Shown one piece after another: positions 45,957 through 48,890 of a stretch of 64,000 nt of DNA. The translations under genes and the position numbers were made by a program. The DNA is from Catajapyx aquilonaris (lineage: Eukaryota): the NCBI GenBank assembly GCA_000934665.2, contig JYFJ02001344.1, forward strand, positions 1 to 64,000, read 5' to 3'. How positions within the stretch are numbered: the first letter of the stretch is position 1; the number at the start of each line of letters is the position of its first letter. A model generated the notes under the pieces. That model was not told where the DNA came from, ran no database searches, and was given only the letters and a program-made list of their open reading frames with translations.

Positions 45957-48890
45957 ATGGCAGCTGCAACAGCCGACACCAGCCTTGCGGATTTGCACAA
46001 CGCTGCGGAGAATGGATCTCTGACATTGGTCCAGATGTTGCTGGACAAAGGACAGTACGTGGACTCCCGTACCAGGAATGGAGTGACTCCACTGATGGTC
46101 GCTTCCAGACGTGGTTGGATTCCAGTGTGCGAGGAATTGGTCAAGAGAGGGGCAAGGGTGAACCTGGCTTCCACTGACCAGGACAAGACTGCCCTGCACC
46201 AGGCAGCGGAATTCAACCACCTGCAGGTGTGTCGCCTTCTGCTGGAGGAAGGGGCAGATCCAATGGTGAAGACCAAAGTGGGGGACACCCCTCTGCACAT
46301 GGCAGCGGAGGCTGGGAACGTTCTCGTGGGGAGGCTTCTCTTGGAGTGGGGGGCAGATCCGGAGGACAGGAATGGGGAGAGAAAGACACCTCCGGGGGTG
46401 GCAGTCATGAAGGATCGGAAGGAGATGGTCAAGTTTTTCATAGGAATTTCTGAACAGATTCACGTCATGGCTGCCATGGGAAGGGAAGATGATGTCAACA
46501 AGTTGTTGGCAGAAAGGGGAGAGAAAGAGGTGAACAAGAGGAACGGACATGGGGAGACTCCCCTGATGGTGGCGTGTCGGGCCAGGAAGGTGGGCGTCTG
46601 TCGGTCCATACTGGACGCGACTGGACAGGAGGAGGTGGACGCGAGGGACGTGGAGGGAATGACAGCCCTTCACTGCTCTGCCAGGAGTGGTCTGGTCCAG
46701 ACGTGCAGACTTCTCCTGGACAGAGGGGCCTCCGTGGACACCCGAACCGTCCACACTGGCCACACCCCACTCCACTTGGCCTGCATGTTTGGACATCTGG
46801 ATGTGTCCAGTCTCCTCTTGTTGGAGGGAAAGAGTGACCCCCAGGCCACGGACAAGGATGGGGCCACACCTGCCTCTCTGGCCCTTCTCAAAAATCATGT
46901 AAAGGTGCATCGATTCATCTTGGATCACCTGAAGTGGACTCATGGCGTGCAGGCTAGGTGAGTGCATGAAATCCGTTCACTTGGCACGTTAATTGTAGGT
47001 CATATGCCGTTGAAAAATTATTGCACTTTTTTGTCATTGGGAAATTCATCGATATGTTATTGTGGCTTTGTCAAGCCTATTCCAGTGATTGGCGATTGAC
47101 TAAGCCACAATAACGTTCGTTGACCTAGGGCTGACAATATTGTTGGGCGGATACACAACCCACAATATGTACAGTGGCACTTCACTGATTCTAACAACTC
47201 ATTAAACCCAATCCCTCAGGGCCGAGGTCAACAGCGCGAAAGAAACGACAGTGGTGTCCAGGTACATGTTGGACTACAAGCAGGAGACCATCTTGGGTGT
47301 GGGATCCTTTGGAGTAGTGGCCGAGGCTGAACTGAAGCTGGCAGAGGCACGTTACGCAGTGAAGAGGGTTCCTCTGCCTCAAGATGACCAACTGAAGGGG
47401 TTAATTCTGAGGGAGGTAAAGGCACTGGCTCGACTGGACCACGATCATGTCGTGAGGTTCCACCACGCCTGGACGGAGAGGACTCCCTGTTGGGTCCATA
47501 AGGAGTGGGACGCCATGACGGCCATATGCTCCAACAGGTCTGGTCCAGAGGCGAGGGAGGCCTCAGAGGCAGCATCCATCTACTTCACCGCTCCCATGAC
47601 TGTGACAGGACCCACAACTGACTTCCTCTTCATGCAGCTCGAACTCTGTGAGAAGGAAACCCTAGGACACAAGATGGATGGGGGAAGATTGAACCTGGGA
47701 AAGTCCGCCAAACTCACCCTCTTCAGTCAAATTGCATCCGCTGTTTGTTACATCCACGCGCAGGGACTGATCCACCGAGACCTGAAACCTTACAATATTC
47801 TTTTTGCCCTGGATGGAAAGAATGTCAAGATTGGAGACTTTGGTTTGTCCACCTCCCTCTTGGGCAAATCTCCCTCCCAACAGCCAGTCCATGGTGACTA
47901 CTCCCAGGAACCAGTTGTTCCTTCACCACCAGAGATGACTGCAGGTATTGGGACCAAACTCTACTGCTCCCCAGAGCAGATGAGAGGAAGAGAGTACGGT
48001 CCCAAGACTGATGTTTATTCCATGGGCTTGATATTGTACGAGATGTTGTCCCCATTTGGAGCGCACAAGGAGGGGAGGGCACAGGCCTTCACCTTACTCA
48101 GGAATGGGGGCCATTTCTCACATGGTTTTACACGCGTCCATGTAAACGAATCACTTCTAATCCAGCAAATGATACGAGATGTGTCCACAAGAGTGTCCTC
48201 TTTTGACGTGGAGAAAGAGATCCTGTTGTCCCTGGATATGAAGAAAAAGGTAATAAGGTTTAATATTATTAGTGATAACTTAACGCTGATGGTGCTGTTC
48301 CCTTGCAGAACATATTAATGTTCATGGAGGCCTGCAAGGAAGGAAGGCTGGAAGAGGTGAAGAGGATGGTGGAAGAGGATGGAGGTGGAGTGGAGATGTG
48401 GATGGAGGTGAGGGTTAAGTATGGACGGAGTGGACTTCACTGGGCTGCATGGAGCGGAAGGGAAGAGGTGGTCGCCTTCCTGCTGGGTGCAGGATGGCAT
48501 GTCAACCAGGAAGACAATACAGGCACAACACCCCTCCATCGAGCAGCAGAAGGAGGACACCCTTCCACGTGCCAGACACTGATCAGGGAAATGGCGGATG
48601 TGGGGGCAAAGAACAAGCTTGGGAACCAGCCTATCCACCTCGCTTCTTGGAGAGGCCACGTCCAGGTTGTGGAGTTACTCCTGCAGGAAGGGGCAGGGCT
48701 GGAGGACAAAGGATGGGGGAATAGGACCCCACTCCACTTGGCGGCATGGTTCGACCAACCCCAACTGGTTCACTTCCTTCTATCCAAGGGAGCGGACAAG
48801 ACGACCAAGGACAAGTATGGGAAGACACCCCTTGAACTCGCAAAGGAGAAGGGATATGATAATGTAGTCATACTTTTGAATGTACAGTAG
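45957..48890 (+). CDS. Ankyrin repeat - eIF2alpha-kinase-family domain - ankyrin repeat protein, 870 aa, 3 exons
   Basis: Exons 45957-46957, 47220-48249 and 48309-48890 join in frame (phase 2, phase 0; 2613 nt). About 9 N-terminal and 5 C-terminal ankyrin repeats; kinase GVGSFG, YAVKR, LREVKALARLDH, LFMQLELC, HRDLKPYN, DFG, GTKLYCSPEQ, DVYSMG. Confidence 0.88.

Follow-up and report, generated by a model that had tools for sequence, protein, structure and literature searches.

The first 64,000 nucleotides (nt) of contig JYFJ02001344.1 from Catajapyx aquilonaris (assembly GCA_000934665.2; this whole stretch is called the window, and positions are counted from its first letter) harbor a gene that is predicted to encode an eIF2α-type protein kinase flanked on both sides by ankyrin (ANK) repeats. 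The gene lies at 45957-48890 on the forward strand and is built from three exons with canonical splice sites, which were read from the sequence and joined by script. Exon 1 (45957-46957, +) contains the start codon, encodes the N-terminal ankyrin array, and ends with the donor AG/GTGAGT. Exon 2 (47220-48249, +; acceptor CCCTCAG/G, donor AAG/GTAATA) encodes a short linker and the entire catalytic domain, and exon 3 (48309-48890, +; acceptor CCCTTGCAG/A) encodes the C-terminal ankyrin array up to the stop codon TAG. The joined coding sequence of 2613 nt specifies 870 amino acids followed by the stop and has no internal stop codon. Intron 1 (46958-47219, +; 262 nt, GTGAGT...CCCTCAG) is a phase 2 intron that interrupts a codon between its second and third bases, and intron 2 (48250-48308, +; 59 nt, GTAATA...CCCTTGCAG) is a phase 0 intron that lies between codons. 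An earlier sequence-only reading of the window had described three in-frame exons; the phases are indeed compatible and the frame stays open throughout, but the wording is loose, since a codon is divided at the exon 1/2 junction.

The base composition follows the exon borders, with 52-57% G+C in the exons versus 36-41% in the introns (0.41 in intron 1 versus 0.57 and 0.52 in the adjoining exons, 0.36 in intron 2). When intron 2 is left unspliced, the reading frame ends after 23 codons at a stop at 48316-48318. The start codon has an A at -3 and a G at +4, and an in-frame stop is found 9 nt 5′ of the ATG. A candidate 5′ intron of 68 nt (45880-45947, GTGAGT...TTGTAG, with the GT at 45880 and the AG at 45946-45947) is located just 5′ of the ATG; if it is removed, an in-frame TAA at 45874-45876 still precedes the start codon. 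A 5′ extension of the start codon is unlikely because in-frame stops lie upstream whether this intron is spliced or not. Judged by these features, the locus is a real and intact three-exon gene.

The encoded protein consists of about 9-10 ankyrin repeats, a kinase domain, and 5-6 further ankyrin repeats, as judged from Pfam, visual inspection, and the paired helices in a single-sequence model. Each exon product is dominated by one kind of domain (Ank_2, 9.5e-56, and Ank, 4.4e-54, in exon 1; Pkinase, 9.8e-41, in exon 2; Ank_2, 2.8e-53, in exon 3), and both introns sit exactly at the domain boundaries. The ANK-kinase-ANK order that had been proposed for 45957-48890 is therefore confirmed by the Pfam matches. 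No further Pfam domain was matched in the three exons, which leaves the protein without a PQQ-like/luminal, dsRBD, Z-alpha, or ribonuclease match, and no RWD/HisRS or HRI-type regulatory domain was found in the 870-residue product. The highest 19-residue Kyte-Doolittle mean across the product is 1.38, and because this peak is below what a membrane helix requires, no transmembrane-like segment is present. The same value agrees with the claim that the protein has neither a signal peptide nor a transmembrane segment, and the protein is predicted to be cytosolic.

The N-terminal array is divided into two blocks by a degenerate stretch near residues 141-170. In a single-sequence AlphaFold2 (AF2) model it takes on about 9-10 helix pairs, of which residues 1-140 are modeled confidently and the remainder with low confidence. 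The best PDB matches of the ankyrin arrays are generic ankyrin proteins, designed repeats, NOMPC, tankyrase, and TRPA1, and RNase L is absent among the best 60 of 348 matches. A pocket for 2′,5′-oligoadenylate (2-5A) like that of RNase L is unsupported because RNase L is not among these listed matches. The C-terminal array scores 70 bits against the N-terminal array of the same protein and 65 bits against the ankyrin array of an ANK-WWE-PARP gene elsewhere in the window.

The kinase domain itself is recognizably of the eIF2α-kinase type. In a phmmer search of the PDB with the exon 2 product, PERK (5e-52), GCN2 (4e-40), HRI (5e-36), and PKR (6e-35) are retrieved ahead of the first unrelated kinase, STK33 (1.8e-19), with SIK3 and CaMK-type kinases also at about 1e-19. 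Scores per domain amount to 145-200 bits for PERK, 146 for HRI (one row), 93-148 for GCN2, and 82-114 for PKR, the lowest of the four; tandem kinase domains account for the high totals reached by the best match, a mite protein, and by some PKR-like proteins of fish. The AF2 model of the kinase domain (built with 25 relatives) has a pLDDT of 83.4. When it is used as a Foldseek query, ranks 1-13 are all PERK, and ranks 1-45 as listed hold only PERK, PKR, and GCN2. The best identity, 44-45% over about 240 aligned columns, is to bivalve PERK. The translation of exon 2 contains the motifs YAVKR, LREVKALARLDHDHVVRFHHAW, LFMQLELC, and GTKLYCSPEQ, which are the four motifs that the sequence-only reading had quoted as family signatures. 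On the strength of the margin in score, the ranking by fold, and these motifs, the predicted domain is assigned to the eIF2α-kinase (PEK) family; the PDB margin (5e-52 versus 1.8e-19) and the 13 leading PERK ranks uphold the family assignment made earlier. A search of the ESM Atlas with the kinase exon returned generic kinase clusters only (giant-virus, diatom, and other), none with ankyrin families.

Between β4 and β5 of the N-lobe, the domain carries an insert of about 45 residues (47482-47619, +) that is predicted to be disordered (pLDDT below 50 at residues 112-127). In the PERK rows, the corresponding matched stretches are about 100-290 residues apart, so the insert was rightly called short.

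For the catalytic residues, columns were counted against fetched relatives, 223 for the N-lobe and 164 for the C-lobe. The Gly-rich loop and the SPE motif are present in the window kinase. The lysine of YAVKR is kept, as in all 223 relatives, as is the αC glutamate (222/223). The H, R, D, K, P, and N of HRDLKPxN are found here and in 164 of 164 relatives, and the DFG motif is complete (D and G in 164/164, F in 163/164). The activation segment from DFG to SPE (47836-47976, +) contains EMTAGIGTKLY, in which both activation-loop threonines, equivalent to PKR T446 and T451, are retained (T in 157 and 163 of the 164 relatives, respectively). The sequence SRYMLD keeps the arginine and the aspartate of SRYxxD (PKR R262 and D266; 208/223 and 197/223). 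In PMC6467004, these two residues are described as forming the salt bridge between N-lobes that is required to activate PKR, GCN2, and PERK. Two sites that are typical of the family have changed, namely the serine of HRDLKPxN, which is a tyrosine here (S in 136/164), and the methionine of LYMSPEQ, which is a cysteine (M in 150/164). With every catalytic column kept, the earlier statement that the catalytic motifs are intact holds, and the kinase domain is predicted to be catalytically competent.

The placement within the family is less sharp than the membership. A careful tree of 60 rows and 279 columns, drawn within the eIF2α-kinase family, recovers a GCN2 clade (99/97) and a PKR clade (98/94), both of which exclude the window kinase. 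The window kinase lies on the non-GCN2 side of the 99/97 branch, in the backbone of PERK, HRI, and PKR, without resolution and with a branch length of 1.67 changes per column. By path length, the rows closest to it are all from PERK, yet it falls in no supported clade. If a clade with PKR is forced, the log-likelihood (lnL) drops by 1.53, with a p value of 0.186 in the approximately unbiased test (p-AU), hence this arrangement is not rejected. In a rooted tree, the family branch receives 77% SH-aLRT support and one outgroup row falls inside the family, the outgroup rows being partial and long-branched. The kinase had been called PERK-derived. Score and path length both put PERK nearest, but the tree offers no supported clade for this derivation, and because a joint clade with PKR costs only 1.53 lnL units the label is a best guess rather than a result; PERK ancestry of the kinase domain is plausible.

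The same relatives include other unusual kinases. P0124, P0146, P0161, P0204, and P0130 are further lineage-specific kinases of the eIF2α family without known sensor domains. Four divergent kinases with short inserts, P0130 among them, form a clade (100/98), and three of the four come from Pristionchus nematodes. The best-scoring relative of the window kinase, the mite protein, harbors two kinase domains in tandem.

Ankyrin repeats were found in none of the relatives examined. A HMMER search of 1.84 billion cluster representatives yielded 552 proteins at E ≤ 1e-30, the best at 263 bits and 35% identity, and no protein more than 46% identical to the kinase occurs among the best 150 of the 552. 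Because these identities are so low, the collection is considered to hold neither this gene's own annotated product nor that of a close orthologue. An ankyrin Pfam family was found in none of the 120 relatives listed by a word-indexed search of the longer proteins. A Pfam scan of 74 fetched relatives detected no ankyrin repeats (0/34 and 0/40), and BLASTP of both ankyrin exons against the 259 fetched relatives gave no match at E ≤ 1e-3. The earlier statement that known relatives lack ankyrins is thereby supported by the architecture search, in which 0 of the 259 carry such repeats; about 400 of the 552 proteins lay outside this comparison, and a more distant relative with ankyrins may exist among them. 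No second copy of the kinase is present within the window.

In the literature on eIF2α kinases or EIF2AK together with ankyrin, no such fusion was found described, subscription journals and supplements being outside the scope of that search. The ankyrin mentions in the accessible part of PMC5666893 refer to Shank1. PKR and RNase L are described as domain gains on older kinase cores in jawed vertebrates in two phylogenomic studies of a single group (PMC11305385 and PMC10400998), whose available portions mention no ankyrin-bearing eIF2α kinase. The predicted ANK-kinase-ANK protein represents a new domain architecture within a known kinase family.

Among the known systems, PERK (EIF2AK3) has the closest kinase domain. 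It shares with the window kinase the SRYxxD motif, LREVKALA, the lobe insert, the activation loop, and most of the αG signature. Unlike PERK, the window protein has no luminal domain and no transmembrane segment and carries ankyrin arrays on both sides instead. Its insert of about 45 residues and an alanine together with a one-residue insertion in helix αG set it further apart, and the tree does not place it inside the animal PERK clade. PKR and PKZ resemble the window protein in being family kinases that are predicted to be cytosolic, with a short insert and repeated non-catalytic modules, and a joint clade is not rejected (p-AU 0.186). They differ in that the window protein has no dsRBD or Z-alpha domain, and in the free tree the PKR clade (98/94) excludes it. 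According to PMC11305385, PKR is known only from jawed vertebrates, which agrees with the vertebrate-specific status assumed for it in the sequence-only reading, whereas the genes around the window kinase indicate a non-vertebrate animal. The same paper describes PKR-sis of sharks, which shows that family kinases without dsRBDs exist and that they need forced dimerization to act.

A second comparison concerns design and not descent. PERK is the sister sensor of IRE1, and the N-terminal ankyrin array of RNase L binds 2-5A. Like RNase L, the window protein joins an N-terminal ankyrin array to a kinase fold from a stress-sensor lineage whose luminal and transmembrane sensor is gone. RNase L is traced in PMC10400998 to an IRE1-like kinase-RNase that gained ankyrin repeats. 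The window protein differs from it by the absence of a KEN/RNase domain, by the retention of all catalytic residues, by its membership in the eIF2α-kinase and not the IRE1 family, and by its second, C-terminal ankyrin array; the arrays of the two proteins show no special sequence likeness.

Ankyrin repeats also accompany the Ser/Thr kinases ILK, RIPK4/ANKK1, TNNI3K, and DAPK1, in which they form the module that binds other proteins. These enzymes belong to other kinase families and are absent among the 60 best PDB matches of the window kinase domain.

The best explanation for these observations, to which a probability of roughly 58% is assigned, is an intact cytosolic ANK-kinase-ANK gene whose product is a competent PEK-family kinase controlled by ankyrin-mediated dimerization, with eIF2α as the default candidate substrate. 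Such a gene could have arisen when the kinase domain of a PERK-like or other non-GCN2 family member, its insert shortened, was joined to ankyrin-repeat exons. The ankyrin arrays would replace the usual sensor of the family. Their binding partner would be a protein or, with lower likelihood, a small ligand, and binding would promote or release dimerization. Two kinase domains would then associate through their N-lobes in the back-to-back dimer of other family members, and the dimer would autophosphorylate the activation-loop threonines. Subsequently, the active kinase would phosphorylate a substrate docked on helix αG, by default Ser51 of eIF2α, which would lead to translational shut-off. The terms "ankyrin sensors" and "functional analogue of PKR", both used in the sequence-only reading, derive from the architecture and are hypothetical.

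Several observations weigh against this explanation, and the chief one, which the sequence-only reading had overlooked, lies in helix αG. The start of the helix (48052-48078, +) reads PFGAHKEGR, while the family pattern is P-F-x-T-x-x-E-R. The threonine column, equivalent to PKR Thr487, is occupied by an alanine (48061-48063), in contrast to T in 160, S in 3, and I in 1 of the 164 relatives. An extra glycine separates the invariant glutamate from the arginine, in a column that is empty in 164 of 164 relatives. The T-x-x-E-R signature is therefore broken, with the glutamate (PKR Glu490; E in 163/164) and the arginine retained on either side of the glycine. Deep mutational scanning of human PKR showed high constraint at only a few sites, one of which is Thr487; this residue is said to stabilize αG and to bring about the conformational change that eIF2α needs for Ser51 phosphorylation (PMC11556786). 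The altered helix weakens the case for efficient eIF2α phosphorylation by the window kinase and is the main evidence against a straightforward eIF2α kinase. The long branch of 1.67 fits relaxed or altered constraint, and the closest relatives are just 35-46% identical. Ser51 of eIF2α is still the most likely candidate substrate, but given the unique alteration of the docking site its chances are rated no better than roughly one in two.

Some of these features would also fit a kinase that is active but has taken on a new function, in which Ser51 is no longer an efficient target and the arrays recruit other substrates or scaffold another pathway, on the model of RIPK4/ANKK1, TNNI3K, and DAPK1. 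This is a serious alternative, albeit not a probable one. It would account for the replacement of the αG threonine by alanine and for the unique insertion between the invariant glutamate and arginine, at a helix whose PKR Thr487 is one of the few positions that tolerate no change (PMC11556786). The terminal branch of 1.67 and the departures from family-typical residues (tyrosine in HRDLKPxN, cysteine in LYMSPEQ) point in the same direction. A complete change of function is harder to reconcile with the remaining αG signature (P, F, Glu, and Arg), which is retained, as are the dimer salt-bridge pair and both activation-loop threonines, and no other kinase family is near in sequence or in fold.

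A further possibility narrows the preferred ankyrin-controlled eIF2α kinase to one use and is a special case of it, not a competitor that excludes it. The protein may serve an invertebrate in the place of PKR, as a sensor kinase of antiviral or immune defense whose arrays respond to a second messenger or to a protein from a pathogen and thereby trigger translational arrest. The parallel to RNase L would suit such a role, since a PERK relative here has ankyrins in place of its luminal and transmembrane parts. The long branch, taken as fast evolution, would fit an arms-race gene, and the ANK-WWE-PARP gene lies 22 kb upstream. The arrays, however, best match generic ankyrins and designed repeats, RNase L being outside the best 60 of 348 matches; the C-terminal array is no closer to the PARP array (65 bits) than to its own N-terminal counterpart (70 bits); and the altered αG helix speaks against efficient eIF2α phosphorylation. 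The immune role is improbable. A more specific version, equally doubtful, would see the gene as a cytosolic shut-off sensor that one invertebrate lineage built for itself, much as RNase L was made from an IRE1-like protein in jawed vertebrates. The membrane sensor of a PERK-like kinase would have been swapped for ankyrin arrays that sense a pathogen protein or a nucleotide messenger, bring about dimerization of the kinase, and arrest translation via eIF2α.

The gene model could also be wrong or the locus non-functional, for instance if the exons belong to separate or alternative transcripts (such as an ANK-kinase form ending 23 codons into intron 2) or if the gene is an unexpressed young duplicate. 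Early in-frame methionines in exon 2 and in exon 3 would allow separate starts, and no annotated protein at least 50% identical was found among the 1.84 billion cluster representatives. Against separate transcripts, the conserved SRY motif lies upstream of the first methionine of exon 2, in a frame that is open from the splice acceptor through SRY. Intron 2 is just 59 nt long and has a strong polypyrimidine acceptor, 870 codons run without a stop over three phase-compatible frames, and the invariant kinase residues are all intact. A faulty model or a dead locus is very unlikely.

Four kinds of sensor are described so far for the animal eIF2α kinases (luminal, RWD/HisRS, haem-binding, and dsRBD/Z-alpha), and with an ankyrin-flanked member a module for protein recognition would join them. 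If the doubtful reading of a shut-off sensor built by an invertebrate lineage is true, the gene would represent a fifth class of sensor for the integrated stress response and the functional equivalent of PKR in animals other than vertebrates. An ankyrin-flanked member would, moreover, be another instance, independent of the first, of the tinkering that PMC10400998 and PMC11305385 propose for RNase L and PKR, in which the kinase core of a stress sensor is newly equipped with a cytosolic recognition domain. The natural change in αG would offer a direct test of how strict the requirement for Thr487 is across the family. If the gene is unexpressed, or if its product no longer acts on eIF2α, the architecture would be merely a lineage-specific domain shuffle.

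The neighbors of the kinase gene in the window are ordinary animal genes. The ANK-WWE-PARP gene (23338-24759, +) comprises an ankyrin exon (23338-23769) and an exon for the WWE domain and the PARP catalytic domain (23791-24459); what is likely the last PARP piece (24529-24759) was recognized by eye and has no Pfam match. Between its ankyrin array and the C-terminal array of the kinase gene, identity amounts to 37-38%. A special kinship of the two arrays was considered and rejected, as their 65 bits fall below the 70 bits between both arrays of the kinase gene. Further along the window, a remnant of the helix-turn-helix domain of a Tc5-type transposase (28610-29227, -) is followed by an exon of MRPS27 (32929-33606, +), for which 9 matches with 30-36% identity were obtained, four of them named and all four from insects. 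An exon of cyclin B (34549-35055, -) shows the same level of identity, about 60%, to the cyclins of vertebrates, brachiopods, crustaceans, and molluscs, and a PLD-like exon lies at 38461-38940 (+). The kinase gene is flanked by two single-exon genes of the MATH-BTB-BACK (SPOP-like) type (39900-40910, -, and 50173-51249, +), which suggests a local expansion of the MATH-BTB family.

Two open reading frames close to the kinase gene were set aside. An antisense frame of 346 amino acids (45936-46976, -) covers the ankyrin exon, has no Pfam match, and probably arises as a side effect of the codon pattern in the ankyrin repeats; the frame at 44540-44953, upstream of the gene, likewise matches no Pfam family.

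Several repeats surround the gene. A short interspersed repeat occurs in three copies on the forward strand (43178-43215, 45506-45571, and 48890-48955). The two copies that bracket the kinase gene are 91% identical over 66 nt and can be aligned over about 110-130 nt, and the downstream copy starts with the final nucleotide of the stop codon. Directly 3′ of the gene, 49112-49944 is occupied by an array of AT-rich tandem repeats that has two periods, of about 29 and 50 nt, and the hexamer ATTAAA is found at 49095, between the stop codon and this array. On the 5′ side, a long (ATC)n/(GAT)n microsatellite occupies 45031-45158, 0.8 kb ahead of the start codon.

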